Of a DNA stretch of 64,000 nucleotides, positions 1 through 13,897 are shown in pieces. The stretch is from Escherichia phage A4, in the sequence record ON286972; one strand, given 5' to 3'. Numbering within the stretch: position 1 is the first letter of the stretch; every line of letters begins with the position of its first letter. The translations under genes and the position numbers were made by a program. Under the pieces are notes generated by a model, which was given only the letters and a program-made list of their open reading frames with translations, was not told the origin of the DNA and searched no databases.

Positions 1-48
1 ATTTCCTCCTTTATTCATTATACTATATTTAATCAAAAAAGAAAACCC

Positions 49-77
49 TTGACACCCTTTCAGTACTGATGTACTAT
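49..77 (+). promoter_or_regulatory. sigma70-like promoter ahead of family A array
   Basis: TTGACA 49-54, 17-bp spacer, TACTAT 72-77; AAGGAGA SD 89-95 before ATG 103. Confidence 0.5.
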
Positions 78-102
78 ATAAGAAATATAAGGAGAATCGT
101 AC

Positions 103-330
103 ATGCCATATGCTCTAAAGTACTACATCAATGAACTAAATGAACTAGAGTACGCAAAGGTTCTCTCTGACCAATCGTGGCTAATTGAACTAAAAAATAA
201 GAAGAGCACTGGGTGTAACCTTATGCTTGGTAGTGCACTGAACACCCTTACTGTGAGCATTGTACACAATACACTATTAGGGGATACCCGTAAACAATTT
301 TTAAACATCTTAGTACTAGTGGCTATATGA
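103..330 (+). CDS. hypothetical small protein, tandem paralog family A
   Basis: 75-aa ORF after strong SD; N-term ALKYYINEL resembles family A KE[YF]Y start. Confidence 0.6.
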   Translation: MPYALKYYINELNELEYAKVLSDQSWLIELKNKKSTGCNLMLGSALNTLTVSIVHNTLLGDTRKQFLNILVLVAI

Positions 331-527
331 ACATTAACCCGTACTACATCAATGCATTGCACCCTGGGCTACAAGATGCAATGAAGAACCAAAAAACAGT
401 ACTGAAAAATGCTAAACGCACTCCAGGACTCCTGAACTCAAACAGGAATAACCTCATCTGGAATGCAATAGAAGGTAACGAAAGTATGCAGTACTATTTC
501 ATCTTAACACTACTATTGGAGTACTAA
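327..527 (+). CDS. hypothetical small protein, family A
   Basis: 66-aa ORF, ATGA start/stop overlap with upstream gene; C-terminal Leu/Tyr tail. Confidence 0.6.
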   Translation: MNINPYYINALHPGLQDAMKNQKTVLKNAKRTPGLLNSNRNNLIWNAIEGNESMQYYFILTLLLEY

Positions 528-528
528 T

Positions 529-738
529 ATGAAAACTGAACATAAAGAATTCTACACCAAATATCTCAGCAACGAAGAACAAATGTTTCTAAGGAGTGTA
601 CCACCTGTAAGTATAGACACACCCAACACAAGGAATTGCTTTAATAATTGTATACGTAGTACTCTAGAAGCTATTGAATACAATAACAAAAATATGCAGT
701 ACTCAAGTTTAATCGGACTAATATACTTCTATGAATAA
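529..738 (+). CDS. hypothetical small protein, family A
   Basis: 69-aa ORF; N-term HKEFYTKYLS; starts 2 nt after previous stop. Confidence 0.65.
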   Translation: MKTEHKEFYTKYLSNEEQMFLRSVPPVSIDTPNTRNCFNNCIRSTLEAIEYNNKNMQYSSLIGLIYFYE

Positions 739-922
739 TCATAAAGATTTCTACTGTAGTAAACTACACGAACAATACAGGGACTCATTCCCTCAAGAAC
801 CTATGAGAAAGAATAGTCCCTTTTATAATTACGATTTCAGGTTGGAGACACGTTATGCAATAGAACAACCATTTACTTCAACTAAGTACCGCTCTATCCT
901 GAACCTCATCTTTAAGTTCTAA
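731..922 (+). CDS. hypothetical small protein, family A
   Basis: 63-aa ORF; N-term NNHKDFY; overlaps previous stop. Confidence 0.6.
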   Translation: MNNHKDFYCSKLHEQYRDSFPQEPMRKNSPFYNYDFRLETRYAIEQPFTSTKYRSILNLIFKF

Positions 923-933
923 AAAGGTACTAT

Positions 934-1143
934 ATGAAAATTACAAACATTCATCAGTACTACATAGATATTCTACCTAAAGATGTACAGTTCATCCTTA
1001 AACAAGAATTCAGTACTTTTAAAAAACTAAAAAGAACCGCACCTAATGTACTCATCCAGCACCAAAAAAATGTAGTTGATAATATTCTACAAGGTGCAAC
1101 AGGGACCGAGTACTTTAATATAGTAAGGCTAATTACATTATAA
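934..1143 (+). CDS. hypothetical small protein, family A
   Basis: 69-aa ORF; N-term IHQYYIDILP. Confidence 0.6.
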   Translation: MKITNIHQYYIDILPKDVQFILKQEFSTFKKLKRTAPNVLIQHQKNVVDNILQGATGTEYFNIVRLITL

Positions 1144-1328
1144 TGAATCATATAAGCTACTATTACCAACAACTATCCGACAGGGACAAGTACAGCCACA
1201 ACTCCCATGTATGGTACTACAAACGCGGTAGTATAAGGGACAAACAACATTACTTCTGTACTGCTATAAAAGAAGTACTAACAACTAAGTACACGTACAG
1301 AGCAGTACTTAAACTTATTGAAATGTAG
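1143..1328 (+). CDS. hypothetical small protein, family A
   Basis: 61-aa ORF; C-term YTYRAVLKLIEM shared with the next three members. Confidence 0.6.
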   Translation: MNHISYYYQQLSDRDKYSHNSHVWYYKRGSIRDKQHYFCTAIKEVLTTKYTYRAVLKLIEM

Positions 1329-1336
1329 AGAATACA

Positions 1337-1516
1337 ATGCTAGAATACTACCTAAGCGTAATTTACCCAGAAGATAGATACGGCTTCAATTACTTCTCAA
1401 TGAGCTATCATTGTAGTTCGCAAAGAAAACAAAGAAAATTACTCCTGAATTGTACTAAATTGGCACAGGACGAAATGTTCACATATAATGAAGTACTGAA
1501 ACTAATTTCTATCTAA
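1337..1516 (+). CDS. hypothetical small protein, family A
   Basis: 59-aa ORF translated by hand (MLEYYLSV...YNEVLKLISI); below the ORF-track length cut-off. Confidence 0.55.
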   Translation: MLEYYLSVIYPEDRYGFNYFSMSYHCSSQRKQRKLLLNCTKLAQDEMFTYNEVLKLISI

Positions 1517-1524
1517 GGTACACT

Positions 1525-1704
1525 ATGCAAGAATTCTATATCTATAAACTCCAGAACAAAGATAGATATATCTATAATCAATTCCAAAGGTACTACACAG
1601 TAGGGAACAAAAGAGATAAAAAACGATACCTGCTATCATGTACAGTAGAAGCACAAAACGAAAAGTACACGTACAGAGAAGTACTGAAACTAATCTCTAT
1701 ATAA
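1525..1704 (+). CDS. hypothetical small protein, family A
   Basis: 59-aa ORF translated by hand (MQEFYIYKL...YREVLKLISI). Confidence 0.55.
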   Translation: MQEFYIYKLQNKDRYIYNQFQRYYTVGNKRDKKRYLLSCTVEAQNEKYTYREVLKLISI

Positions 1705-1714
1705 GGAATAAACT

Positions 1715-1894
1715 ATGCTAGAGTACTACACCGATAATCTCAGTACTAAGGATCGTTTCATGTACGACACCTTCGTGAAGTACTACAACCTGGGAACAAA
1801 AAGTACTAAAACTATTAATCTCAATAGCTGTATTCATCACGTCCTGACAAAAAATAACCCATACAGAGAAATAATCTCGCTTGTAACAGTATAA
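1715..1894 (+). CDS. hypothetical small protein, family A
   Basis: 59-aa ORF translated by hand (MLEYYTDNL...YREIISLVTV). Confidence 0.55.
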   Translation: MLEYYTDNLSTKDRFMYDTFVKYYNLGTKSTKTINLNSCIHHVLTKNNPYREIISLVTV

Positions 1895-1913
1895 GCAATT
1901 TAAGGAGACTAAA

Positions 1914-2585
1914 ATGAAACTCAATCCACAAAGCAAACGATACCTACAGCACTTTAAGTACCTGCAATCAATCCAGGCTGAATCTACCACTAATGCATAT
2001 ACTTATCATCCTAATGTACTAAAGAACCTAAAGAAAAGTAAAAAAACCAGTACAAATGGAGTTAACGTATCAAAGAACCTTGAATTGTACATGAAGAAAA
2101 ATAATATAGCTGTTCATTATATGAATATCTATAATACTGATTTAAAAGTATTGAGTACTAATACGAGCATGAAGGTACTAAAGAACGCATCCTTCATCAT
2201 CCATATGCAGTTGGATAATACCCCGTGCACTTTAATGCTATACTTCGGGAATACATACTTCTTCGGGAATTGTAACACCTCCCACGATGTCAATACAGCA
2301 CAATTCCAAATGGGTGGCATATACAGTATGGGTTCAGAAGAAATACACGATAACATGCATTTCTTCCAACAGCAACGTACAGAAGAAACTAAATCAATTG
2401 TAGAATTCCTCAAAGAACTACAAGGCAAAGAATTATCAGAAGAAGAACTATTCATGTACAGTACTGTAATCAATAATCCTGTACTGTACAAAAACGCGTA
2501 CAATCTAACAAAACATGTACATGAACTTATCAGTACTAATAAGAAAATTCATCACCTCATTACGTATATTACAAACTATGTATAA
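1914..2585 (+). CDS. hypothetical protein with family C-like motif, inside family A array
   Basis: 223-aa ORF after TAAGGAGA SD; carries SEEELFMYSTV, a variant of the family C FQxS motif. Confidence 0.65.
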   Translation: MKLNPQSKRYLQHFKYLQSIQAESTTNAYTYHPNVLKNLKKSKKTSTNGVNVSKNLELYMKKNNIAVHYMNIYNTDLKVLSTNTSMKVLKNASFIIHMQLDNTPCTLMLYFGNTYFFGNCNTSHDVNTAQFQMGGIYSMGSEEIHDNMHFFQQQRTEETKSIVEFLKELQGKELSEEELFMYSTVINNPVLYKNAYNLTKHVHELISTNKKIHHLITYITNYV

Positions 2586-2760
2586 AGAATACTACATAAG
2601 TTTTCTTAGTATTGATCTACAAAAGCTTATTCCCCAAAAACCTGTAGATTTCAAAGATAAGAGCCAAACTATATTCTACCGATATCAAACAGAATCTGCA
2701 ATAAATGAAGATGATATCTATAACCTGTACAATGTACTAACACTTATATACAGGTACTAA
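2578..2760 (+). CDS. hypothetical small protein, family A
   Basis: Internal ATG 2578 gives MYKEYYISFLS start; ORF-track start 2515 judged an upstream extension. Confidence 0.6.
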   Translation: MYKEYYISFLSIDLQKLIPQKPVDFKDKSQTIFYRYQTESAINEDDIYNLYNVLTLIYRY

Positions 2761-2761
2761 T

Positions 2762-2950
2762 ATGCATAAAGAATACTACACAAAATATTTCCCAATGTAC
2801 CTCAGAACTAATCTATTAGATAAACCTCGCGGTATCAATACACAAAACGATAAAAAGTACTTTACTATGTGCACTAAAGCATGTATACAAGATTATGATA
2901 GCTATCATCGAGTACTGTACCACACCCTGTACCTCGCATTCGTGTACTAA
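2762..2950 (+). CDS. hypothetical small protein, family A
   Basis: 62-aa ORF, MHKEYYTKYFP...LYHTLYLAFVY. Confidence 0.65.
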   Translation: MHKEYYTKYFPMYLRTNLLDKPRGINTQNDKKYFTMCTKACIQDYDSYHRVLYHTLYLAFVY

Positions 2951-2959
2951 GGAAATCAT

Positions 2960-3160
2960 ATGCATAAAGAATACTACATAAAAGAACTACCAAAGTTTCT
3001 ACAAGGCAATCTATTAGATGATGAACCTCGCGACATTAACTGTATATACGAAGCTGATTACTTCCGTACATGTACTGAACAAGTACTTAATGAAGAAGTT
3101 AATGAAAACAATTCTCAAGTACAACTGTACCACACTCTGTATCTCGCGTTCCAGTACTAA
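2960..3160 (+). CDS. hypothetical small protein, family A
   Basis: 66-aa ORF, MHKEYYIKELP...LYHTLYLAFQY. Confidence 0.65.
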   Translation: MHKEYYIKELPKFLQGNLLDDEPRDINCIYEADYFRTCTEQVLNEEVNENNSQVQLYHTLYLAFQY

Positions 3161-3168
3161 GGACTAAT

Positions 3169-3351
3169 ATGTATAAAGAATTTTATAAAGATCATCTCCC
3201 AATGCATCTCCAACACCTTGTACCAACAGAACCAATAGGAATAAAAGATCACGCAAAGATAATGTTCCAACAATGTACTAAGTACACCCTAATATATGAT
3301 GACAATCCATATATGCTGTACTACATGGTAATGCTAACATTCAGGTACTAA
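3169..3351 (+). CDS. hypothetical small protein, family A
   Basis: 60-aa ORF, MYKEFYKDHLP...MVMLTFRY. Confidence 0.65.
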   Translation: MYKEFYKDHLPMHLQHLVPTEPIGIKDHAKIMFQQCTKYTLIYDDNPYMLYYMVMLTFRY

Positions 3352-3352
3352 T

Positions 3353-3553
3353 ATGTATAAAGAATACTATATGAGTAAACTATCAACCACCGAAAGAATC
3401 TGGTGCGGAGCCGCCGCCCCCGTTAATCCAAAAAGTGCATACGCAAAAATGTGCTTTAGGAAAGCTACAACGAACTCAATTGAAGCTCTAGAACAAGATA
3501 ACACTAAAGCACTATACTCTAACCTAATGTTGCTAGTATATATCTATGGATAA
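3353..3553 (+). CDS. hypothetical small protein, family A
   Basis: 66-aa ORF, MYKEYYMSKLS. Confidence 0.65.
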   Translation: MYKEYYMSKLSTTERIWCGAAAPVNPKSAYAKMCFRKATTNSIEALEQDNTKALYSNLMLLVYIYG

Positions 3554-3734
3554 TTATAAAGAATTCTACTTAAGTACTCTCCCTACAGTACTATCACTTA
3601 GTGCTCAATATAAAGTTCCCCTGGATAATGCATACTCCAAGTATAACTACTCCCTAACTGTTAAACGCTGTATAGAGAATCTTAGCAGTACTAATCAGTA
3701 CTATAACATCGTACTACTTATATTCAGGTACTAA
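3546..3734 (+). CDS. hypothetical small protein, family A
   Basis: 62-aa ORF, MDNYKEFYLSTLP...LLIFRY; 8-nt overlap with previous gene. Confidence 0.65.
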   Translation: MDNYKEFYLSTLPTVLSLSAQYKVPLDNAYSKYNYSLTVKRCIENLSSTNQYYNIVLLIFRY

Positions 3735-3735
3735 T

Positions 3736-3921
3736 ATGTATAAAGAATACTATAAACAATTTGTTAAAGAGAACTACAAACATGCCGTCCCCGTAATCCC
3801 TTTAAATTCCCATGACCCAAGTTCTATATTCTTGTTTAAGGACGCAATACGTACAGTACTCAATACTAAAGATGAACAGGTGCAGTACGTATTCTTACTA
3901 TTACTTATATACAGACACTAA
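3736..3921 (+). CDS. hypothetical small protein, family A
   Basis: 61-aa ORF, MYKEYYKQFV...LLLIYRH. Confidence 0.65.
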   Translation: MYKEYYKQFVKENYKHAVPVIPLNSHDPSSIFLFKDAIRTVLNTKDEQVQYVFLLLLIYRH

Positions 3922-3938
3922 AGCACTAAGGCACTAAT

Positions 3939-4139
3939 ATGAATAAAGAACATAAAGACTTCTATATAAGAGAACTCAAAGAGAATGAACAAGTATGGAT
4001 TAAATCTCTCATAGAACTACCCTTTAATAGATATGAATTGTATAGATGTACTAATATAGCAATAGACCCTCCTCCTTTTGAAGAGAATGTAGAGTACAAA
4101 CAGTACTACTATATCTTAATGCTTATATATAGGAAGTAA
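3939..4139 (+). CDS. hypothetical small protein, family A
   Basis: 66-aa ORF, MNKEHKDFYIREL...LMLIYRK; last member before the non-coding hub. Confidence 0.65.
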   Translation: MNKEHKDFYIRELKENEQVWIKSLIELPFNRYELYRCTNIAIDPPPFEENVEYKQYYYILMLIYRK

Positions 4140-4800
4140 TATAGCTAGGGGAAGCTCCATAGTGCAAGCATTATACAGGCTTTAACATATGTTGCATATG
4201 TTAAAATTCAGCCTGGACAAATGCGATCACTAGGATTCTCCCCAGGCTAAACCCCGTAATCATAGGTAGTCATAAGTAATCATATATAAACATTTAAGTA
4301 ATCATTTATAATCATGGTAGTGATTAGTATTGAGTACTAGAGTGTAATAGAGTACAGGAAAGTATTCAGTACTGAAGGATTACCCCTATATGATTCAGTA
4401 CTGATATCCCACTAAGTAGGCAAATGAAGTCGCCCAAAATTTACATAATTTTACAGTACTGAACAATTGCAAAACAAATCATTTCCAATCAAAAGTAATC
4501 ACGGAATGACCAGTACTGAAAACTCCCAATCACCTATTCAAAAAAGTTCAATTTACCCTTCGTCAAAAATCCCGAATACCCATTGGGGAAAATTCCGAAT
4601 ACCCCTTGAGGCTCCAGCAAAAAGTTGGTTAGTACTCCATCGTAAATCTGGATCGTAAAAATTTTGGAGTACCTATGAAATAAAAGTTGGATCTTCGAAA
4701 GTTGAAATTTACATTGGGACATATAGGATTAGTGGGATATAATGAGTTTTGAAGAGATACAGAGTATACGATTTCAGTACTGAATGGTGAAAGAAAGTTA

Positions 4801-4828
4801 TTGACTTTATGATTCAGTACTGTATAAT
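4801..4828 (+). promoter_or_regulatory. sigma70-like promoter with no downstream ORF
   Basis: TTGACT 4801-4806, 16-bp spacer, TATAAT 4823-4828; no ORF of 60 aa or more follows. Confidence 0.35.
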
Positions 4829-5204
4829 GTTCTACATAGAGTGATGGATTGCCGCAAACAATTCAGAGCCTTAACCCTCCTGTCGTGAGACAGTACAGAA
4901 GAGATTGAATCCTCCTATGCAGTGGTTCATCTTTGACAACCTCTTTTTTCGTAATATAAACAGTACTGTTATTAACAGAATGGTAGCAGTACTGATATTA
5001 ATCTAATATAATGTTACCATGCAATGTGGTGAATTCCCCTTAACAGTATTCAGTACTACATGATAGTCTTCATCCTCCTAGGGTAACATAGTGAGGGCTA
5101 TGATGGCAGTACTGAATACTCCCTTCTTAAAGATAGATCTATGGTATAGTACTGACGGATTTTGGGCGTAGTAACCCTGGGTGGATTTTGGACGTAGAGA
5201 TGTC

Positions 5205-5350
5205 TAGACCTCCAGATGGCTGGAAGTAAAGATGGCTATCCCTCTAGACGGCTAGACGGCTGGATGGCTAGATTTCTAGATGGCTGTACTGCTAGACGTT
5301 TGGACGGCTAAACGGCTAGATGGTTACACGTCTGGATGTATAGACGGCTA
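5205..5350. repeat. iteron-like array of about 14 contiguous 8-9-bp repeats (consensus RGAYGGCT)
   Basis: tagacggct / agatggct / ggatggct / ggacggct units run head to tail through 5205-5350. Confidence 0.7.
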
Positions 5351-5534
5351 AATCAAAATTTTATACTGTTTTTTTCCATTAGTTCCCCTACCGCGTGGGG
5401 ATGGTTTCCCCGCAGTATCTGGAGTTAGATTTTTCTGAATCTGGAATCATTATCTAATAAACTGGGGGCAATGTCAACCGCCTGGATGAATATTTTTAAA
5501 AAATAATCTAGTACTGAATTTTGGGCGTAACTAT

Positions 5535-5590
5535 GCACCCGGTGGGCTAGAGTCTTTCTCGACTTGATGAAATAATTATAGCAGTACTGG
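5535..5590. repeat. 56-bp dispersed repeat, copy 1
   Basis: gcacccggtgggctag...cttgatgaaataattatagcagtactgg; about 80 percent identical to copy at 9830-9885. Confidence 0.55.
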
Positions 5591-6053
5591 AAAAATAAAG
5601 CAATACCCTGGATGCAAAAAGTTTTAATTAATTTGCTTGCCATCCTGGGGCGTACTATGGTACTATGATTCAGTACTGAGAAAGTGCTTTGACCTGCTAG
5701 GGTGCGGGAGTGTATCCTTTTTAAATTTTATGAATTTTGGACGGATCTTCCCACCCCCTGGGGTATCCGCTTTCTCGCGTCTATGTAGTAATTATACGCT
5801 TTTTTAGTACTGAGTCAATAGCTAAAAACAAAATAATTGAAAATAATTTAACGCGTTTAAACGGCCCGTAAAGCCCTGGATTGGTGGGAGTGGTGCAAAT
5901 GTATAGCTTAGGTGTATTAATGCGTTAGAACGCGATTGAGGCCGTTTTAATGGTATAGTACTGAATAATTGTACTCACTGGATTGATTCAGTACTGAATG
6001 ATAGTACTCCTATATAGAAAGAAAACTATTTTAAAAGTATTTGTAGAAAGTAC

Positions 6054-6081
6054 TTGCATACTATGTTTAACGGCGTATAAT
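6054..6081 (+). promoter_or_regulatory. class A early promoter
   Basis: AGTACTTGCAT -35 region and TATAAT 6076-6081, 16-bp spacer; followed by G-rich leader and ATG 6138. Confidence 0.55.
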
Positions 6082-6137
6082 GTTTTACATCGAGACGGGG
6101 GAAACGCTCCTAACTCACTTTAATAGGAATTAAAACG

Positions 6138-6500
6138 ATGGCGACTCAAATCACTAAAATCATTGCTAACCTGGTTAACTTTCGCGAAGAGATGAAAGAT
6201 CTTCCGGCTGAGACTGTAAAGATTCATATTTCAGCTTATCGGGAATTGATTGCAATGTTGCCGCTTAAGCGTGAACAATACGCCGCTACTGTGATGCTTG
6301 ATGCGATGATCCACAAGATGATTGCCAGTGATTTAACGATGGCTTATCAGTACATGGGCGAACTATTTGCGGTGTATAGTAAACCAGTGCCTGGGATGGA
6401 AAGTACCGAAGTATTGCACGGCTTAAACTTAAAACAAGATGCATGGGATAATATGCCTCGTTTCCTGGTATGGGCTGACAGTGGCAAGATTTACGAATAA
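6138..6500 (+). CDS. hypothetical protein
   Basis: 120-aa ORF downstream of promoter and purine-rich SD. Confidence 0.7.
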   Translation: MATQITKIIANLVNFREEMKDLPAETVKIHISAYRELIAMLPLKREQYAATVMLDAMIHKMIASDLTMAYQYMGELFAVYSKPVPGMESTEVLHGLNLKQDAWDNMPRFLVWADSGKIYE

Positions 6501-6514
6501 GTTTTAAAAAGTAC

Positions 6515-6573
6515 TTGCATACTAAGTTTAAAAGCGTATAATACTTTCTATCAGGTGGGGAATAGTTCCCCAC
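6515..6573 (+). promoter_or_regulatory. class A promoter plus 5'-UTR hairpin
   Basis: TTGCAT 6515-6520, TATAAT 6537-6542; hairpin GTGGGGAA-tag-TTCCCCAC 6555-6573. Confidence 0.6.
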
Positions 6574-6594
6574 TATAATTAAGAGATTAATTTT

Positions 6595-6828
6595 ATGAGT
6601 ACTATCTTAACTGTTTCTCAATCCGTTGCACTGGCTGAATTGATGGAAGCTCTGAGCCGTTGCACTGAGGTTGGCTTGTTTGATGTGGTTGACGTTGCAC
6701 CGGACGTTATTAATCATTTTTGTGATGCAATGGAAGAGTGCAAGGAAGATGATAGCCGTATGATGGCGGCCACCTTTGAGGAAGTACAGCCAGGTGAGAT
6801 CAAAGGTTTACCAGTACTGAAAAAATAG
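6595..6828 (+). CDS. hypothetical acidic protein
   Basis: 77-aa ORF after promoter, hairpin and SD (AAGAGA). Confidence 0.7.
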   Translation: MSTILTVSQSVALAELMEALSRCTEVGLFDVVDVAPDVINHFCDAMEECKEDDSRMMAATFEEVQPGEIKGLPVLKK

Positions 6829-6831
6829 TAC

Positions 6832-6892
6832 TTGCAAACTAAGTTTAAAAGCGTATAATACTTTACATCGAGGCGGGGGAATGGTTCCCCGC
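6832..6892 (+). promoter_or_regulatory. class A promoter plus 5'-UTR hairpin
   Basis: TTGCAA 6832-6837, TATAAT 6854-6859; hairpin GCGGGGGAATGGTTCCCCGC 6873-6892. Confidence 0.6.
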
Positions 6893-6914
6893 TCAATCAA
6901 ACGAGGATTTAAAA

Positions 6915-7154
6915 ATGGCTAAATCAAAAATGTTCTTAGGTCACAAAAACAAAACTCAATGGAATGTAAGCCTTTGGATTAATAACGATGAATCATTATA
7001 CCGGTTGGCCCAGGACTTTATTGCCGCTAACACTAATCGCAATGATGCGGCCCGTCATATGATGCTATTTTTAGAACAGACTGGACAAGATAAAACGCCG
7101 GACGGATTCAAGTACAGTACTACGGCGATCCGTGCGGCGATGGTTGGAATGTAA
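6915..7154 (+). CDS. hypothetical protein
   Basis: 79-aa ORF; SD GAGGA 8 nt upstream. Confidence 0.7.
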   Translation: MAKSKMFLGHKNKTQWNVSLWINNDESLYRLAQDFIAANTNRNDAARHMMLFLEQTGQDKTPDGFKYSTTAIRAAMVGM

Positions 7155-7236
7155 TAGAATAGATTTAAAGTACTATTGCACGGTGATAGTACTTTATAAT
7201 AGGATTTTATTCATACATCAACGATGGGGTAACAGC

Positions 7237-7500
7237 ATGAATATTATATACTTTGCAACGCGTGAACAAGCTCGGATCGCCGCTCGCCAGGACGGGGCAA
7301 CGTTTAAAGATATGGGCGTGCAATCGGAACGTGGTAAACGTTGGGCGGTAGTAAAGCAAAGTACAGCCAGATCCTTACAGTACTGGTTAGCGGCGTTAAA
7401 AAGTCCTGCTAGTGTATCGCGTCGAGTGGTAGAAATAAAGCACGACCGCAAGGGCAACCGTGTTACTGTGTACAGTACTAAAAAGATAGCAGTACTATAA
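7237..7500 (+). CDS. hypothetical protein, paralog of gene at 19204
   Basis: Start MNIIYFATREQARIAARQ; C-term HDRKGNRVTVYS shared with 19204..19599; ORF-track start 7132 judged an extension. Confidence 0.65.
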   Translation: MNIIYFATREQARIAARQDGATFKDMGVQSERGKRWAVVKQSTARSLQYWLAALKSPASVSRRVVEIKHDRKGNRVTVYSTKKIAVL

Positions 7501-7509
7501 AAAAAGTAC

Positions 7510-7568
7510 TTGCAAAGTAATTAGATTAATGTATAATACTTTCTATCAGGTGGGGAATACTTCCCCAC
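7510..7568 (+). promoter_or_regulatory. class A promoter plus 5'-UTR hairpin
   Basis: TTGCAA 7510-7515, TATAAT 7532-7537; hairpin GTGGGGAATACTTCCCCAC 7550-7568. Confidence 0.6.
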
Positions 7569-7589
7569 TACAATGAAGAGGATTTTAAA

Positions 7590-7820
7590 ATGGCTATTAT
7601 GTATATGACCGAAGTTAAAACCGTAAAAGATACTACCACTAATAAAACTACTTACTTACAGCGGGTATGCGGTGTATGGCAACGTATTAGTAAAGCAAAG
7701 TACTATAAATTAACTTCATATGCTAATCGTTCGGATTCATTCAGTACTGAAATAAAAGGTAATAAATTACACCAATACGGCACTTATTATTATTATAGCC
7801 TGGACGCGATTGCAGTCTAA
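7590..7820 (+). CDS. hypothetical protein
   Basis: 76-aa ORF after promoter, hairpin and SD. Confidence 0.7.
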   Translation: MAIMYMTEVKTVKDTTTNKTTYLQRVCGVWQRISKAKYYKLTSYANRSDSFSTEIKGNKLHQYGTYYYYSLDAIAV

Positions 7821-8070
7821 GCAGTTTACAAATCTTTACAATTGCCAGTATTGACTTATTTTGTCAGTACTGGCATAATGTATCTATTGAAACGAACAAT
7901 TTGGCCCACGGGGTGCGGGAGTGTATCTATAGAAAAAGTAGTTTAGTACAGTTACAATTGTGCACCCTATGGGTTAGCTGTTGTCATGGGGTATATTATA
8001 CCAGTACTGGATAGTGCTGTCAATACCTTTTTTTTACTATTCAGTACTGAAAACTATTTTTAAAAAGTAC

Positions 8071-8098
8071 TTGCAAACTATGTTTAAAGGCGTATAAT
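8071..8098 (+). promoter_or_regulatory. class A promoter (first of a tandem pair)
   Basis: TTGCAA 8071-8076, TATAAT 8093-8098; exact TTCAGTACTGAA palindrome at 8040-8051 upstream. Confidence 0.55.
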
Positions 8099-8106
8099 GT
8101 TTTACA

Positions 8107-8185
8107 TCAGGACGGGGAACGAAATAAGTAACTCCCCATTAAGTAGCCCAGGAGTAAGGCACACGAAAAACTCCCCTGATAAAAT
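8107..8185 (+). other. conserved ~80-nt structured leader / candidate small RNA (copy 1)
   Basis: caggacggggaacgaaataagtaactcccc...ctcccctgat, near-identical to 18008-18085; internal GGGGA/UCCCC and AUCAGG/CCUGAU pairings. Confidence 0.4.
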
Positions 8186-8188
8186 AGT

Positions 8189-8216
8189 TTGAAAATTGTT
8201 TTTAAAAGCGTATAAT
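8189..8216 (+). promoter_or_regulatory. second promoter of tandem pair
   Basis: TTGAAA 8189-8194, 16-bp spacer, TATAAT 8211-8216; ATG 8249 follows. Confidence 0.5.
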
Positions 8217-8248
8217 ACTTACATCAACTACTGAATGAGGGTTACAAA

Positions 8249-8860
8249 ATGAAAACTATCACTACTACTACTTTCGTTATGGATTTTTCTGAATTGAACG
8301 CAGAACAAAAAACGTCAGCTATCGAACTGGTTCGGGAACGTGAAAAAAACTCAAACGACAATTATTTTTCTGAAAGTGAAATTGAATACTATAAAGAAAC
8401 AGTACTACCGGAATATGGCATTAATGACGCTGAAATACAATTCAGTGGTTTTTGGTCCCAGGGTGACGGTGCATCAATCAGTACTGACCACGTTGACGCA
8501 GTGAAGTTTTTACGCAAGGTAAGAGCATTAACTAAGTATCGCTCAATCCGTCACCTGCTGAATGAAGATGATTTGGCGATGAGTGTAAAGCGTTCGCACT
8601 CCCACTACTCGCATGAGAATACTGTAAGCGGGTACATTGAATCGGCTTACACTGATTTAACCGCAAAACAAGAAACGTTAGTTAATGAGCTTGAGGAACT
8701 ACTCACTGAAACTATTCGTGAATTATCCCGCAAGTTGTACCGTGATTTAGAGAATGCATATGAGGATCAATTCACTACTGAAAACATTACGGCACTGATT
8801 GAGGGTAACGAATATCAATTCAATGTTATTGATGGCGTAGTAGAATCAATCGAATATTAA
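8249..8860 (+). CDS. hypothetical acidic protein
   Basis: 203-aa ORF; SD GAGGG upstream; no family recognised by eye. Confidence 0.7.
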   Translation: MKTITTTTFVMDFSELNAEQKTSAIELVREREKNSNDNYFSESEIEYYKETVLPEYGINDAEIQFSGFWSQGDGASISTDHVDAVKFLRKVRALTKYRSIRHLLNEDDLAMSVKRSHSHYSHENTVSGYIESAYTDLTAKQETLVNELEELLTETIRELSRKLYRDLENAYEDQFTTENITALIEGNEYQFNVIDGVVESIEY

Positions 8861-8872
8861 TTTAAAAAGTAC

Positions 8873-8932
8873 TTGCATTGTAGTTAGATTAACGTATAAT
8901 ACTTTACATCGAGGCGGGGAATGGTTCCCGCC
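8873..8932 (+). promoter_or_regulatory. class A promoter plus 5'-UTR hairpin
   Basis: TTGCAT 8873-8878, TATAAT 8895-8900; hairpin GGCGGGGAATGGTTCCCGCC 8913-8932. Confidence 0.6.
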
Positions 8933-8950
8933 TTTACTGAGGGTTATCTA

Positions 8951-9232
8951 ATGAGCAAAGTAATTAACTATACAGTGTTAAGCAAGTCATTGTCTATTAG
9001 CCAATGTACTGATGGTTATTGGCTTTATGATGAAACGCGTGGCATGAATTTAGCTATGCAGGAGAAAACTACTGATGCGGCATATCTTAAAGCACTGGAA
9101 TACTACCAGAAGCGTTTAAAGGAAGTAGAAAACGATTATAATAACCTGAAAGCGAAAGTAGATAATTTCGTTGGTCAATTCGTTGACGATGACGAGGGGC
9201 ACTACTGCGACCGTTGCGGATCTTACAGTTAA
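8951..9232 (+). CDS. hypothetical protein
   Basis: ATG 8951 after GAGGG SD; ORF-track start 8921 lies in the leader hairpin. Confidence 0.65.
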   Translation: MSKVINYTVLSKSLSISQCTDGYWLYDETRGMNLAMQEKTTDAAYLKALEYYQKRLKEVENDYNNLKAKVDNFVGQFVDDDEGHYCDRCGSYS

Positions 9233-9249
9233 GTACTGAGGATTATCTA

Positions 9250-9453
9250 ATGAGTGATTTAATTGAACGTATCAAAGAGCTTGAAGAAAAAGAATTGCAG
9301 TTAATCGGCTTACAGAATAAAATCTATCATGATTTGGGGAGTTTTATCAATGCTTGGGATAGTGGCGATCCTGATGCGTTACCTGCTAACCGCCAGGCGA
9401 TGATCAATGATGTGCGTAGTGTCTTTGAGTATGTTTTAAAGCAATTAAATTAA
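9250..9453 (+). CDS. hypothetical protein
   Basis: ATG 9250 with GAGGA SD 8 nt upstream; no own promoter, likely co-transcribed. Confidence 0.6.
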   Translation: MSDLIERIKELEEKELQLIGLQNKIYHDLGSFINAWDSGDPDALPANRQAMINDVRSVFEYVLKQLN

Positions 9454-9462
9454 AAAAAGTAC

Positions 9463-9490
9463 TTGCAATTAGTTTTTAGTACTGTATAAT
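9463..9490 (+). promoter_or_regulatory. class A promoter
   Basis: TTGCAA 9463-9468, AGTACTG then TATAAT 9485-9490; G-rich hairpin follows. Confidence 0.55.
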
Positions 9491-9541
9491 GGTTTACATA
9501 GAGGGGGGGAAATGGTTCTCCCTGGTAATGAGGAAAATACA

Positions 9542-9763
9542 ATGGCTAATATCACTACTCTTTCCCAACTGGAAGCACTGGTTAAATCTATGCGGGAACA
9601 TGCCGACAATATCGGCGTAAAAGATCCAGCCGTTTGCTTCTGCGACGAATTGAATGATGATACCCTGGTAATAGCAGAAGTCCAGGACGTTTCTAACTAT
9701 TCCTCGCGTTACACTGGCGGTGTAGCAAATAAAGGTGACTTCTGTTTATACCTTACAAAATAA
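9542..9763 (+). CDS. hypothetical protein
   Basis: ATG 9542 after GAGGAAAA SD. Confidence 0.65.
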   Translation: MANITTLSQLEALVKSMREHADNIGVKDPAVCFCDELNDDTLVIAEVQDVSNYSSRYTGGVANKGDFCLYLTK

Positions 9764-9766
9764 CAA

Positions 9767-9798
9767 CGCGGGGAGATAATAACTCCCCGTTACTTTTT
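9767..9798 (+). terminator. rho-independent terminator
   Basis: Stem CGGGGAG/CTCCCCG with 7-nt loop, then TTTTT. Confidence 0.6.
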
Positions 9799-9829
9799 CA
9801 GTACTGAATCATTTAATAGACGGATCTCG

Positions 9830-9885
9830 GCACCCGGTGGGTTAGTGACTGTTTCGTCTTGATGTAGTAATTATGCCAGTACTGG
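9830..9885. repeat. 56-bp dispersed repeat, copy 2
   Basis: gcacccggtgggttag...cttgatgtagtaattatgccagtactgg; weaker relatives near 5745 and 7963. Confidence 0.55.
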
Positions 9886-9931
9886 ATGCACTTGTCAACA
9901 ATTATTTTTCAAATACTTTTTATTAAAATAC

Positions 9932-9959
9932 TTGCAATTAGTTTTTAAACGCGTATAAT
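9932..9959 (+). promoter_or_regulatory. class A promoter
   Basis: TTGCAA 9932-9937, TATAAT 9954-9959; GGGGGAGCGGTTCCCC hairpin follows. Confidence 0.55.
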
Positions 9960-10006
9960 GTTTTGCATAGGGGGAGCGGTTCCCCTGGTAACTAAGGAAT
10001 AAGAAA

Positions 10007-10243
10007 ATGGTCGAACAAATCAAATCAACGTCTTCGAATGTAACGGGAACGGTAGCACACTTTACTAGTGATGAATCGCGGGGCGTTCCCTATTGTGCTG
10101 TACATGTAAACACTGAGGGTAACTACTGGTTTACGGTTTACGGATCATATTCATTTGGACGGCCAGGGCATCAAAAAATTCTGGATAAAGTACAGCCAAC
10201 GGGTAAAAATATCACTGCTGAAATGTTTTATAAAAAATCATAA
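10007..10243 (+). CDS. hypothetical protein
   Basis: 78-aa ORF; SD TAAGGAA. Confidence 0.7.
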   Translation: MVEQIKSTSSNVTGTVAHFTSDESRGVPYCAVHVNTEGNYWFTVYGSYSFGRPGHQKILDKVQPTGKNITAEMFYKKS

Positions 10244-10328
10244 AGTACTTGATAATAGTTTTTAGTACTGTATAATATTTTACATCGCAAGGGGGGAGCG
10301 GTTCCCCCTGGTAACTAAGGATAATCAA

Positions 10329-10628
10329 ATGAAAATTGCAATCATCGCCCTGGCTTTATCTGTTTCCTCTTTCGCTGTTAATGCGTCGTTAGATGTAAGT
10401 AGTGAAAAATTCATTCAGTGCACCGTAGCAATGACAGATGAAAGTACTGGCGAGATTGTTTTAAAGGATTTAGAGATCCAGCCAGAAGCATTTAAAAACG
10501 GGCCGTTCCATGAAGAAGACGAAAAAGGTAGCACGACAATTTATTACGATGCAAGTACTAAACGCGGTTCGGTCACTGTTATGGATACTGAGAAAGTAAC
10601 TCATACTGGCGTTATTAATTGCCGTTGA
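10329..10628 (+). CDS. small secreted/periplasmic protein (predicted signal peptide)
   Basis: N-term MKIAIIALALSVSSFAVNA has positive-hydrophobic-AxA signal-peptide shape. Confidence 0.65.
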   Translation: MKIAIIALALSVSSFAVNASLDVSSEKFIQCTVAMTDESTGEIVLKDLEIQPEAFKNGPFHEEDEKGSTTIYYDASTKRGSVTVMDTEKVTHTGVINCR

Positions 10629-10649
10629 TAGATACTACGGGGTAACATC

Positions 10650-10880
10650 ATGACTAAGCGAATTGTTTTACTTAACGAAAGCAGTACTACACAACTACTT
10701 AACGCCGTGCATTATGATATTGAAACGAGCGTTAATCTTATCAGTACTGTAGTACTGTTGGACACTGGAAAGGTCGCCAATGATAAAGCGATTGCAGGTA
10801 TACTAACGGATCTTGAGCCTGGTAGCAGTGCACCAATAACGTTAAATGGTAAAGTGTTTAACATTTTACTTACTGATTAA
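10650..10880 (+). CDS. hypothetical protein
   Basis: 76-aa ORF 20 nt after previous stop. Confidence 0.6.
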   Translation: MTKRIVLLNESSTTQLLNAVHYDIETSVNLISTVVLLDTGKVANDKAIAGILTDLEPGSSAPITLNGKVFNILLTD

Positions 10881-10886
10881 GTACAT

Positions 10887-10909
10887 AGCCCACCTGGTGG
10901 GCTTTTTTG
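10887..10909 (+). terminator. rho-independent terminator
   Basis: Stem AGCCCAC/GTGGGCT, loop CTG, then TTTTTT. Confidence 0.7.
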
Positions 10910-10962
10910 TTTTTGTAGTATCGTAGTACTGAGATACTTTGAAAATAGTTTTAAAAAAGTAG

Positions 10963-10990
10963 TTGACATTACCGCAGAAAAGCGTAGAAT
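10963..10990 (+). promoter_or_regulatory. sigma70-like promoter
   Basis: TTGACA 10963-10968, 16-bp spacer, TAGAAT 10985-10990. Confidence 0.5.
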
Positions 10991-11113
10991 GTATTACATC
11001 AAGACGGGGAGCACTAAGTAGACCGCCAGTAAGTCGAACGAAAAACTGGACACGTCGAGAAAACTTTGATACACTAATAAACGTAAACTAAACTTTAATT
11101 GAGGATTTATAAA

Positions 11114-11596
11114 ATGGCTAATGTAAAATCATTCATCAAAGCACTGGTAGCAAATGAAACTAACGTAGCGGCAGAGATCCTGGCTGAACTGGATAACGAT
11201 ACCATGAAAGCGGTACGCAATAATTTTAACATCGCTTACAGTACTGCGAAAGAACTACAAGCAAATAAAGCGGCGGCACTTGAAGCTGAGAAGGCAGCAC
11301 GCGAAGCAGAATTGCAGAAAACGATTGAAGATATTAACGCCGCCGTCGCTGGGCTTGATCTGGAAGTAGTTACCGAAATGGCACGTAAAGCCCTGGCAGC
11401 GAAATACGGGGAAGACAAGCCAGAAGTAAAAGCTAAAAAATGGATTCAAGAACGTGTGACGGTTGTACTGGATAATGGCGAGGAATACACTGTACCAGTA
11501 CGCGGTAACTGCATTGCCGTAGTACTGGATGCTATCAAAGAAAGCGGTTTGACCCGTGAGGAATGGATCGAAGCTCATCGCAAAGTTGAAGCATAA
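11114..11596 (+). CDS. hypothetical Ala-rich protein
   Basis: ATG 11114 after GAGGA SD; 160 aa. Confidence 0.7.
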   Translation: MANVKSFIKALVANETNVAAEILAELDNDTMKAVRNNFNIAYSTAKELQANKAAALEAEKAAREAELQKTIEDINAAVAGLDLEVVTEMARKALAAKYGEDKPEVKAKKWIQERVTVVLDNGEEYTVPVRGNCIAVVLDAIKESGLTREEWIEAHRKVEA

Positions 11597-11617
11597 CAAT
11601 TAAAGTACTGAATCACT

Positions 11618-11645
11618 AGCCCACCTTAAACAGTGGGCTTTTTTG
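11618..11645 (+). terminator. rho-independent terminator
   Basis: Stem AGCCCAC/GTGGGCT, 8-nt loop, then TTTTT. Confidence 0.7.
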
Positions 11646-11798
11646 TGTCTATAGTATTCCAGTCCACTAGCACCGCCTAGAATCGATTCTAACGCATTAA
11701 ACTGATTATCTGATGTATCGCCCTAGCTGGTGGCGTTAAGGTCGTTAGAACGCGATTGAGGGCGATTAAAGTATTTTATAAAAACTAATAAAAAGTAC

Positions 11799-11826
11799 TT
11801 GCACGATTAAGAGATTAGCGTATAAT
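11799..11826 (+). promoter_or_regulatory. class A promoter
   Basis: AGTACTTGCAC -35 region, TATAAT 11821-11826. Confidence 0.5.
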
Positions 11827-11871
11827 TAATTACATCAAGGCGAGACACCTTAACTAACTGAGGATATAAAG

Positions 11872-12024
11872 ATGAATACTTATGAACTGGATTGTTTCAC
11901 TTTACAAGTAATGTCAGTATGCAGCAAGAAAGATTGGTCATCAAAGGAATTTAAAGCAGTTATCGCGTGTGCAAAACACGGCAAGACTATCAATGAAACG
12001 GCATCAATCATTGATAAACTTTAA
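11872..12024 (+). CDS. hypothetical small protein (50 aa)
   Basis: Hand-translated MNTYELDCFTLQV...; SD TGAGGA upstream. Confidence 0.5.
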   Translation: MNTYELDCFTLQVMSVCSKKDWSSKEFKAVIACAKHGKTINETASIIDKL

Positions 12025-12032
12025 AAAATAGT

Positions 12033-12061
12033 TTGACAATAGTTTTAAGTACTGACATAAT
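12033..12061 (+). promoter_or_regulatory. sigma70-like promoter
   Basis: TTGACA 12033-12038, 17-bp spacer with AGTACTG, CATAAT 12056-12061. Confidence 0.55.
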
Positions 12062-12094
12062 ACATACATCAACTACTGAATAGGAATCAAAACA

Positions 12095-12322
12095 ATGGCT
12101 ATCGTAATCACTCGCGTAACTGGTACTACTGGCACTGCTTCAACTGTTGCTGTAATTACTAATAAGAAAGGTGCGGAATTACATTTTGCAATGAATACCT
12201 GGGCGGTGAATGAGTTCGGTCAGTGGGCAAGTGTAGAATACATTGAAACCTATCAAGTGCCATCGATTAGCTTAACTGATTTAGGTGTAGAACGTATCCT
12301 TTGCCTGGATGAATTAAATTAA
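12095..12322 (+). CDS. hypothetical protein
   Basis: 75-aa ORF; SD AGGAA. Confidence 0.7.
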   Translation: MAIVITRVTGTTGTASTVAVITNKKGAELHFAMNTWAVNEFGQWASVEYIETYQVPSISLTDLGVERILCLDELN

Positions 12323-12330
12323 AAAAGTAC

Positions 12331-12358
12331 TTGCAAAGTAAATCGGATAAAGTATAAT
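12331..12358 (+). promoter_or_regulatory. class A promoter plus hairpin
   Basis: TTGCAA 12331-12336, TATAAT 12353-12358; hairpin GGGGAGAAATGATTCTCCCC follows. Confidence 0.55.
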
Positions 12359-12408
12359 ACATTACATCAAGGGGAGAAATGATTCTCCCCACTAAGAGGA
12401 AACTAAAA

Positions 12409-12552
12409 ATGAAAACTTGTCAATGTGGTAAAAAATCTATTACTGGTTTAAAGCGGGGCGTTGCTCTTTGCCAGTATCATTATAATGCTCAAGTATGGGG
12501 TAAAGAGTGGGCCGACCAGGTTGAAGCATCAAAGAAAGCAAAAAGTAAGTAA
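12409..12552 (+). CDS. small Cys-rich protein (47 aa), possible zinc ribbon
   Basis: Hand-translated MKTCQCGKK...CQYHYNAQ; CxC...CxxH spacing. Confidence 0.5.
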   Translation: MKTCQCGKKSITGLKRGVALCQYHYNAQVWGKEWADQVEASKKAKSK

Positions 12553-12571
12553 AAATATTATCACAGTACTA

Positions 12572-12600
12572 TTGACATAGTTTGATAGTACTGGCATAAT
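12572..12600 (+). promoter_or_regulatory. class B promoter flanked by inverted AGTACT half-sites
   Basis: CAGTACTAT-TTGACA-17 bp-CATAAT, with ATAGTACTG inside the spacer. Confidence 0.6.
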
Positions 12601-12633
12601 AGATTTTATCAAGACAACTAAGAGGAAACAAAA

Positions 12634-12846
12634 ATGGCTATCATTACTAAAATCAAAGTAAACAAAACACTGGTTAAGCTGGAACAAGTGAAAGCAGGTT
12701 ATAAAGTATCTTGGTGCGGTATGTATCGGACGTTCGCAGAGGTTGACGATGCAATCAAGTACTACACTGATACGGTTGCTAACTTTGTTCGTGCTGATGT
12801 AGTAATGGCAGTGGCAACACATAAAGCAGCGAAAGAAAGTAAGTAA
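12634..12846 (+). CDS. hypothetical protein
   Basis: 70-aa ORF; SD AGAGGAAA. Confidence 0.7.
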   Translation: MAIITKIKVNKTLVKLEQVKAGYKVSWCGMYRTFAEVDDAIKYYTDTVANFVRADVVMAVATHKAAKESK

Positions 12847-12865
12847 AATTATTATCACAGTACTA

Positions 12866-12894
12866 TTGACATAGATTGATAGTACTGGCATAAT
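12866..12894 (+). promoter_or_regulatory. class B promoter
   Basis: Near-identical copy of the 12572 cassette. Confidence 0.6.
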
Positions 12895-12937
12895 AGATTT
12901 TATCAAAACAACACATATTAATTTAAGGAATACTAAA

Positions 12938-13282: not shown

Positions 13283-13362
13283 TTAGCTTTACTTTATGCA
13301 GATACTTTGATATAGTGTCTGCATAGGGGAAAGAAATTAAATTAACTTAAGAGGATAGTATA

Positions 13363-13632: not shown

Positions 13633-13683
13633 TCAAAACAACGTTAGCGGTTGATTTGGGCCGCTAATTTTGAGGATAATACT

Positions 13684-13854: not shown

Positions 13855-13897
13855 TATTCTTACTGTACAGGATAAGATCGACATCTTAAAGGTTAAT

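Follow-up and report, generated by a model that had tools for sequence, protein, structure and literature searches.

Positions 4140-6137 of the DNA studied here raise the question of why a phage should carry two kilobases of untranslated DNA dense in one perfect 12-bp palindrome, TTCAGTACTGAA, when phage genomes are known to avoid short palindromes. The DNA is a 64,000-nt stretch of Escherichia phage A4 (sequence record ON286972), hereafter the window, and its 84-91% identity to Asteriusvirus records places the phage in the genus Asteriusvirus as a 121Q/G17-like jumbo coliphage. The first-pass annotation described 4140-6137 as a non-coding hub and read the palindrome as either a binding site for a dimeric factor or a structural promoter element. 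We find that TTCAGTACTGAA is the full-length form of a motif with an AGTACT core, and that this core is kept by selection, both in genes and between them, in four enterobacterial RaK2-like genera. We also find that 4140-6137 is a conserved untranslated region lying across the left edge of a direct terminal repeat of about 21 kb. The hub contains no credible open reading frame (ORF), as had been claimed, but it is not simply regulatory, since it straddles the edge of the terminal repeat and holds the left genome end.

Exact TTCAGTACTGAA occurs eight times in the window, compared with 0.00 copies expected from 100 dinucleotide shuffles, and 28 sites match it with at most one mismatch, compared with 0.32 expected. 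The AGTACT core occurs 273 times compared with 19.9 expected, which is a 13.7-fold excess. A count against expectation was the check proposed by the first-pass annotation, and both words lie far above expectation in the window. Three of the exact copies are in the hub, at 4365-4376, 4773-4784, and 5987-5998; the first had been located correctly, while the other two had been given starts of 4783 and 5988. The remaining exact copies start at 7740, 8040, 9797, 21246, and 57889. As for the variants that match at 11 of 12 positions, the one at 4394-4405 (TTCAGTACTGAT) is where it had been reported, our mismatch search moves two others from 4454 to 4452-4463 (TACAGTACTGAA) and from 5670 to 5669-5680 (TTCAGTACTGAG), and the site claimed at 4510 (ACCAGTACTGAA) matches at only 10 of 12 positions. 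A further 11/12 variant, TTCAGTACTGTA at 4813-4824, adjoins a -10 hexamer. Seven of the 26 sites that match at 11 or more positions fall in the hub, which is 3% of the window, and the AGTACT sites of the hub have a mean flank match of 3.7 of 6 compared with 2.2-2.7 in the rest of the window. The palindrome is nevertheless no speciality of the hub, as it had appeared to be, because only 21 of the 273 AGTACT sites lie there, and exact 12-mers are also found at ordinary promoters and inside genes.

The excess extends over the genome. We used EC22.5-2, an unannotated relative of 351,992 bp, as a 352-kb genome-wide sample. AGTACT is its most over-represented hexamer (919 copies compared with 101 expected, 9.1-fold), and CAGTACTG is its most over-represented 8-mer (204 copies compared with 11 expected). 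The density of AGTACT is 7 per kb in the 25 kb that match window positions 1-25 kb, and 1-3.5 per kb outside them, late regions included. Across the clade the density is 2.6-7 per kb, compared with 0.06 per kb in E. coli K-12, where a 50-kb sample contains 3 copies. Many other GC-containing 6-bp palindromes are wholly missing from the window. Two thirds of the AGTACT sites of the window are within ORFs, in all three frames. The flanks are symmetric: about half of the sites have C at -1 and G at +1, and T/A is preferred further out. These preferences fit the dimeric reader that the first-pass annotation had suggested.

The results show that AGTACT is conserved above the level of the surrounding DNA. 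Over 37 kb in which the window and EC22.5-2 are 88% identical, 82% of the AGTACT sites are unchanged, compared with 58% of all hexamers and 62% of the hexamers no more than 40 bp from a site. The plus-strand ORFs contain 178 AGTACT, in all three frames, whereas 62 +/- 7 are found after synonymous codons are shuffled within genes. In the hub, 14 of the 21 sites are positionally conserved across six phages, one of them EJP2 (about 80% identity). The gaps between sites are more even than a Poisson process in three large genome segments (coefficient of variation 0.77-0.83, p <= 0.004), and the spacing of AGTACT shows no clear helical period except for a peak at 20-23 bp that comes from promoters with two sites. 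In EC22.5-2, the one-mismatch neighbours of AGTACT are mostly mildly enriched (1.2-2.1 fold), and the transition neighbours are not depleted (AGTATT/AATACT 1.23, AGTGCT/AGCACT 1.78); only AGGACT/AGTCCT falls below expectation (0.6). The lack of depletion among the transition neighbours argues for a degenerate binding motif and against a drive resembling very short patch (VSP) repair, which we rejected on this ground. Taken together, the symmetric flanks and the mildly enriched neighbours make AGTACT look like a protein site. Two blocks of the window, 25256-29749 (4.5 kb) and 31572-38869 (7.3 kb), just inside the right edge of the repeat, are free of AGTACT, and the second is likewise site-free in EC22.5-2 at about 90% identity. 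These blocks may be foreign DNA that has yet to adapt, or genes exempt from the selection.

We compared the window with other large phages. AGTACT is the top hexamer in samples of Klebsiella phage RaK2 (119 compared with 12 expected in 50 kb), Cronobacter phage GAP32 (64 compared with 7.2 in 30 kb), and Yersinia phage fHe-Yen9-04 (58 compared with 6.7 in 30 kb), with an excess of 8.7-9.9-fold across the three, and these samples consist chiefly of structural and metabolic genes. The AGTACT-rich genera are Asteriusvirus, Alcyoneusvirus, Mimasvirus, and Eneladusvirus, and the flank preferences are identical in the four, with C enriched and G depleted at -1. Their tail-sheath orthologues (66-85% protein identity) contain 6-11 AGTACT each, compared with about 0.7 expected; one position is common to all four genera, and two are common to three. 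In Pseudomonas phage PA5oct, AGTACT is not enriched (1 compared with 8.8 expected), and its sheath gene contains none. A phi92-like coliphage has 2 AGTACT compared with 5.8 expected, both in one cassette that is about 90% identical to the window.

The position of the hub at a chromosome end follows from its relatives. Several relative records of 370-384 kb hold the hub twice. In G17, positions 1..20668 equal 350150..370817, so that the segment is doubled at both ends of the record, and the vB_Ec-M-J record carries the annotation 'Direct Terminal Repeats 1..21525'; the segment inside the boundary is thus present twice in these full-length records. The repeats of fEgEco12 are 20,993 bp by PhageTerm, with ends confirmed by ten restriction digests (PMC13070987), and the terminal repeat of Sharanji is 20,668 bp (PMC11895373). 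G17, BF17, vB_Ec-M-J, fEgEco12, and WPEC3 start with AGTAGGCAGAGGAAGTCTGCC, or end with it in reverse orientation, and this sequence aligns to window position 4415, so that the boundary agrees with chromosome starts that were mapped experimentally in relatives. By homology with these mapped relatives, we infer that the packaged chromosome starts at window position 4415, and the starts of the relatives and the junction alignments point to 4415-4435 on the plus strand (AGTAGGCAAATGAAGTCGCCC) as the first repeat bases at the physical left end. The junction itself, ...CAGTACTGATATsCCACTA joined to AGTAGGCA..., is kept in the window, G17, EC22.5-2, 121Q, and Salmonella phage SD-6. The hub accordingly consists of about 275 bp of unique DNA followed by 1,723 bp that form the leftmost part of the packaged chromosome. 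The unique side, 4140-4414, has no ORF, forms the junction with the right-hand repeat copy in the packaged genome, and is conserved in G17 and EC22.5-2. Close to the cut, the AGTACT of the variant at 4394-4405 is kept in all six aligned phages; five of these have their chromosome end 12 bp past this conserved CAGTACTGAT. Tandem GTAATCA-type short repeats with a period of 10-22 occupy 4256-4315 just before the end, where two of the 12-mers also precede the cut. The right edge of the repeat is approximate, at about 25,392: it was located through the beginning of the G17 record, with no more than a 10-nt motif matching at the edge itself. The direct terminal repeat would then be 4415-25392 on the plus strand, about 20,978 bp of early region with small ORFs, compared with 20,668-21,525 bp in relatives.

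The GC skew switches sign at the chromosome end. To the left of the hub, window positions 1-4139 contain 17 tightly packed plus-strand ORFs, sixteen of them about 60 aa long and the other 223 aa, and their skew (-0.14 to -0.17) is opposite to that of all other plus-strand genes of the window. Chi sites (GCTGGTGG) are also placed with respect to the repeat. The window has eight, at 11726, 16665, 16934, 17927, 20293, 22222, 23800, and 24022, all on the plus strand and all inside the terminal repeat, and the minus strand of the window has none. EC22.5-2 has 16 on the plus strand and 12 on the minus strand, compared with about 1.5 and 1 expected, and 9 of the 16 are in the repeat. Their orientation in the repeat would stop RecBCD coming in from the right end. 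A back-to-back pair of Chi sites, CCACCAGC-nnnn-GCTGGTGG, lies about 600 bp from the left end in G17, EC22.5-2, BF17, vB_Ec-M-J, and fEgEco12. The corresponding place is about 5015-5035 in the window, where the pair is degenerate, and the G17 record annotates a terminator there.

The relation between AGTACT and promoters is confined mostly to this repeat, a string of small genes most of which have their own promoter-like site. Of the sites in the repeat, eleven fit TTGACA-N16/17-TATAAT at all 12 positions, and ten of these are on the plus strand. The first-pass annotation reported that AGTACT abuts the -35 and -10 elements, and this is confirmed: on the plus strand AGTACT starts exactly 7 nt before TAnAAT in 16 cases (AGTACTG-TATAAT) and exactly 27 nt before it in 20 cases, where it overlaps the first -35 base (AGTAC-TTGCAA). 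The positional bias consists of these two peaks on the plus strand, and none is seen on the minus strand. In all, about 50 of the 273 sites have a fixed position adjoining or overlapping a -35 or -10 hexamer of a strong promoter-like site, as operators do, nearly all of them in the repeat, and there is often a second or third site 20-23 bp away, the spacing at which AGTACT pairs are most frequent. The promoter of the first repeat gene is of the overlapping type (AGTAC-TTGCAT, 16-nt spacer, TATAAT; 6049-6081, plus strand), and the exact palindrome at 5987-5998 is 56 bp before its -35. At two promoters the full 12-mer lies about two more turns upstream of the promoter sites: the copy at 8040-8051 is 19 bp before a AGTACTTGCAA-type promoter, and that at 21246-21257 is 20 bp before its promoter in a similar arrangement. 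The spacing had been put at 25-30 bp and extended to the copy at 9797, which does not belong here: it comes after a terminator, and the next plus-strand promoter is about 145 bp away.

These arrangements do not make AGTACT a part of the promoter itself. A structural promoter element cannot be the full account of the word, because about 80% of the copies are unrelated to promoters and two thirds are inside genes. In the phi92-like coliphage the cassettes are built as in the window, from a promoter, a 5' hairpin, a small gene, and a terminator, and all but one of these homologous cassettes lack AGTACT, which indicates that the word is not needed for the function of sigma-70 promoters; we rejected an intrinsic sigma-70 element accordingly. 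AGTACTG was also rejected as a canonical extended -10 element, since it adjoins TATAAT without the spacer base of TGnTATAAT.

We tentatively propose that AGTACT with its ttC...Gaa flanks is recognised by a dimeric DNA-binding protein specific to the clade, which would mark phage DNA and regulate the early promoters, and that the hub is its loading region; of the explanations considered here, this is the one that we regard as quite plausible. The candidate reader would be dimeric, sequence-specific, common to the clade, and probably phage-encoded. Because the density of sites is much higher in phage DNA (one per 150-400 bp) than in the E. coli K-12 sample (about one per 17 kb), the reader would bind chiefly to phage DNA and be distributed along it with fair regularity. 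Its occupancy beside the -35 and -10 hexamers would compete with RNA polymerase, most simply turning early transcription off, and the even genome-wide spread suggests an extra role in coating, marking, or organising phage DNA. The hub could serve as the main region of loading or nucleation, as it has the densest cluster of the best sites and lies at the chromosome end, where cutting, packaging, and possibly the start of DNA entry take place. It also bears elements specific to the end, namely an 8-bp tandem array, orphan promoter-like sites, and a long inverted repeat.

Several points weigh against this proposal. No binding protein was found: a Pfam search of 150 window ORFs, covering no other part of the genome, detected no DNA-binding domain. 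Only four of these ORFs matched a domain at all (MCPsignal, DUF7249, ParE_like, and DUF1033), and the PHROG families of the window ORFs are of unknown function. Repression is deduced from geometry, and activation or an effect of methylation would give the same phasing. The regular spacing fits roles in priming, topoisomerase action, or packaging equally well. About 11.8 kb near the right edge of the repeat is without AGTACT, so that any function requiring full coverage must tolerate gaps. As for the chromosome end, with one site per 95 bp in the hub, chance could well place one within 20 bp of it, and the argument for a tie to end formation is confined to the conservation of that site.

A broader scheme would combine AGTACT with a second word. 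GCGC is absent from the 64-kb window, from EC22.5-2 (0 compared with 180 expected in 352 kb), and from the RaK2, GAP32, and fHe-Yen9-04 samples, while 30 kb of PA5oct contain 27 copies and 50 kb of E. coli contain 342 (6.8 per kb). This absence suggests a GCGC-specific nuclease encoded by either the host or the phage. A two-word code for self and non-self could then exist, in which GCGC has been purged and AGTACT built up; a phage reader, or a hijacked host one, would coat, organise, or protect phage DNA, time the early promoters, and help to form the chromosome end, with the hub as a nucleation centre, while the GCGC nuclease would destroy only host DNA. We consider this scheme possible but rather unlikely.

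Methylation offers another explanation, which we judge improbable. AGTACT would be the target of a phage DNA methyltransferase, and the full, hemi-, or unmethylated state of the sites would gate the early promoters and the cutting of the end, much as Dam methylation of GATC gates the P1 pac site, oriC through SeqA, and the IS10 promoter. The word has suitable properties, being palindromic, overlapping promoter hexamers, and lying beside the chromosome end. A motif scan of EC22.5-2 gave one Dam-family ORF, which encodes a small phage-type Dam (PF05869, E = 6e-32). For RaK2 and Sharanji, two or three methyltransferase genes have been reported, as has methylation of RaK2 DNA (PMC3622015, PMC11895373); AGTACT-specific viral methyltransferases are known elsewhere (PMC7253447). 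However, a methylation target needs neither ninefold enrichment nor even spacing, and GATC is depleted here to 0.59 of expectation. Methylation is also compatible with a clade-specific reader rather than exclusive of it, since a protein that reads the mark would still be required.

It is no more probable that the hub 12-mers serve the chromosome end alone. In this explanation they would bind the small terminase subunit, like a pac site, or an injection or arrest factor, like the injection stop signal (iss) of T5, and the genome-wide excess of AGTACT would be a separate matter. The best 12-mers do cluster in the hub, the end follows a conserved site at a fixed 12 bp in five phages, and an 8-bp tandem array is near; T7 has heptamer arrays beside its terminal repeat. 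The hub also resembles Repeat Region 3 of T5 (10.1101/866236). On the other side, the right edge of the repeat has no comparable layout, its nearest 12-mer-like site (25252) being about 140 bp away, and a role restricted to the end does not account for the exact 12-mers at ordinary promoters and in genes. EJP2 retains the AGTACT and diverges right after it. We also rejected an iss of the T5 type with DnaA boxes, because the hub contains none.

A hijack of the host protein SlmA appears very unlikely. Sites that mimic those of SlmA (GTGAGTACTCAC), spread over phage DNA, would activate or titrate this nucleoid-occlusion factor and block division. SlmA is the only host protein known to us with an AGTACT-centred site. 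AGTACT is enriched in phages of four enterobacterial hosts and not in the Pseudomonas phage, and Pseudomonas, to our knowledge, has no SlmA. In 352 kb the relaxed pattern T.AG..CT.A has 178 matches. Sharanji-infected cells form filaments and their DNA fills the cell (PMC11895373), but filamentation has many other possible causes. Both sites are 12-bp palindromes with a central AGTACT dispersed over a chromosome, and SlmA is a dimeric helix-turn-helix protein; however, SlmA strongly prefers G1, T2, and a purine at position 3 (PMC3020112), whereas the phage flanks are the opposite, with C favoured and G depleted at position 3. The GTR flanks make up 1% of the half-sites, and full GTRAGYRCTYAC matches number 0 in 352 kb. 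The numbers also differ, with about 900 sites per 352 kb here and about 50 per 4.6 Mb for SlmA, and tblastn found no SlmA homologue in the phage group, its hits being host contamination. We therefore rejected the identity of the phage word with the SlmA-binding site, as only A4, G5, and T6 are common to both and the required flanks are avoided.

The idea that the excess has no function, being a by-product of duplicated cassettes and paralogues or of VSP-type biased repair or mutation, is largely excluded and highly improbable. In its favour, the near-identical promoter cassettes and paralogue families that fill the repeat (phrog_4148, for example, has 20 members) inflate local counts. Against it, the excess is as strong in the single-copy structural and metabolic genes of RaK2, GAP32, and fHe-Yen9-04 (which rules out a duplicated-cassette artefact), conservation of the sites exceeds the background, no depletion is seen among the transition neighbours, and the spacing is regular rather than clustered.

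Among known systems, the closest parallel to the hexamer is HIP1, the highly iterated palindrome GCGATCGC of cyanobacteria, which has no settled function. Like HIP1, a short perfect palindrome found every few hundred to about a thousand bp, AGTACT is many-fold over expectation in both coding DNA, in all frames, and non-coding DNA, and its excess is kept across related genomes. Unlike HIP1, it is a different word in a clade of virulent phages, some of its copies are phased with promoters, and its best copies are at a chromosome end; the link to a methyltransferase or repair drive proposed for HIP1 has no clear counterpart here, where the neighbours show no such depletion and a Dam-family enzyme is encoded by EC22.5-2. 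The dispersed operators form another class of parallels, including KorB OB sites on RK2, P1 C1 operators, and the sites of SPO1 TF1 and phi29 p6 on their own genomes. TF1 favours early-promoter sites in the terminal redundancy of SPO1, and p6 coats the phage genome and shuts early promoters. AGTACT resembles these in having many copies over a replicon, some at fixed distances from promoters. It differs from the KorB and C1 sites in being one to two orders of magnitude more numerous, and from all of them in lying mostly within genes and in that no cognate protein is known. TF1 and p6 read modified or bendable DNA, whereas AGTACT is a hexamer, and the proposed reader would be alike in logic and unrelated. 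Short palindromic words also flank the terminase cut in P1 pac, as clustered TGATCA/G hexamers; these are Dam sites regulated by methylation, whereas only one conserved AGTACT is close to the cut here.

For the hub as a whole, the nearest relative is T5 Repeat Region 3, a 1.2-kb untranslated block across the repeat edge that is thought to hold the injection stop signal (10.1101/866236). Both are untranslated regions of 1-2 kb that straddle the edge of a long terminal repeat of early genes (host-takeover genes in the case of T5), and both contain palindromes and inverted and direct repeats and are better conserved than ORFs. The hub lacks the paired DnaA boxes of T5. Its place is the outer edge of the left copy, equivalent to the right copy's inner edge, whereas the region in T5 occupies the left copy's inner edge. 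This phage group is not known to inject its DNA in two steps, and the palindromes of T5 do not form a word that is spread over its genome.

Terminal repeats have already been published for this genus. We found no mention of the AGTACT excess or of the untranslated end region in the literature searched, which included work on RaK2, CBB, Sharanji, and fEgEco12 and jumbo-phage reviews; its coverage was incomplete, and an earlier description is possible. The results mean that a whole clade of 350-kb phages retains about 900 copies of one restriction-type palindrome under selection, and they point to an unrecognised DNA-reading protein or epigenetic mark that could be central to the distinction between self and host DNA and to early shut-off. 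They also give a role to a conserved 2-kb region that database records leave unannotated or fill with spurious ORFs, and position 4415 sets where the genome of this phage should start. The 12-mer TTCAGTACTGAA is a concrete and cheap handle for experiments.

The remaining features of the hub were mapped. We rejected the hub as coding DNA, since its candidate ORFs are broken in relatives by 1-nt and other non-triplet indels (8 and 15 nt), the longest of them by single-base indels. ARAGORN found no tRNA or tmRNA in the hub or the repeat, and Rfam gave no relevant match on 1-30000 at E <= 1. The first-pass annotation had noted promoter-like sites with no ORF, and this holds for the sigma-70-type site at 4801-4828 on the plus strand (TTGACT-16-TATAAT), which matches the consensus at 11 of 12 positions and has no ORF downstream. 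Six phages share it almost unchanged, differing by single bases at two positions of the spacer; the exact palindrome at 4773-4784 is 17 bp before its -35 hexamer, and TTCAGTACTG, within the variant at 4813-4824, adjoins its -10 hexamer. Downstream of it, the predicted RNA fold of 4836-5165 has z = -5.0 against mononucleotide shuffles, and an imperfect inverted repeat at 5044-5121, with arms of about 22 bp and an AGTACT in each, is predicted to form a long RNA hairpin and lies in a block that is nearly 100% conserved. The blocks relevant to a hub RNA are 95-100% identical among relatives, and this variation is too low for covariation. The tandem array at 5196-5357 consists of about 20 degenerate 8-bp units (consensus CTAGACGG), and its copy number differs among relatives, partly in one-unit steps. 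Three minus-strand promoter-like sites in the hub aim back at this array. One of these is TTGACA-17-GATAAT at 5449-5477, past which come a GGGGAAACCATCCCC hairpin and an ORF of only 8 codons. A 66-nt unit (family D4) occurs twice on the minus strand, at 5515-5580, where it opens with TATAAT and contains CCCACCGGGTGC, and at 5731-5796, with a TTGACT-16-TATAAT promoter-like site at 5818->5791. Relatives of the unit recur between genes of the terminal repeat.

Other elements accompany the early genes of the repeat. A GGGGAA-N-TTCCCC hairpin lies about 10-20 nt past many early promoter-like sites, before the ribosome-binding site (6557, 6876, 7552, 8916, 9971, 10293, 14102, 14332, 14659, 15435, 18473, 18744, and 23007, and 5397 in the hub). 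It is also found in the phi92-like coliphage and probably stabilises the 5' end of the mRNA. AAAGGGATTGACTCCGGTCAGTCCCTTT, a terminator hairpin with a 12-bp stem that doubles as a TTGACT-17-TATTAT promoter-like site, is present at 15073-15110, 17839-17876, 21148-21185, and 23907-23944. A conserved CCCAyNGGGTGC element lies about 20-30 nt past the AAAGGGATTGACTCCGGTCAGTCCCTTT hairpins and also at 5535 in the hub and at 7905, 7962, and 9830. The early-gene cassettes at 6822-9232 are 81-91% identical to those of phi92-like and rV5-like phages of about 145 kb (such as JLBYU50 and phiWec179), and this similarity indicates recent exchange of early genes between unrelated coliphage groups.

Outside the repeat, paralogue families occupy 26-31 kb and 38-64 kb of the window, including phrog_4148 (20 members), phrog_12674 (12), phrog_9317 (9), phrog_11711 (9), and phrog_13866 (7). 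One window ORF has a ParE-like toxin domain according to Pfam. A plus-strand gene at 51277-52539 encodes a 421-aa protein with a methyl-accepting chemotaxis signalling domain (PF00015, E = 3.5e-37), which is unusual for a phage.

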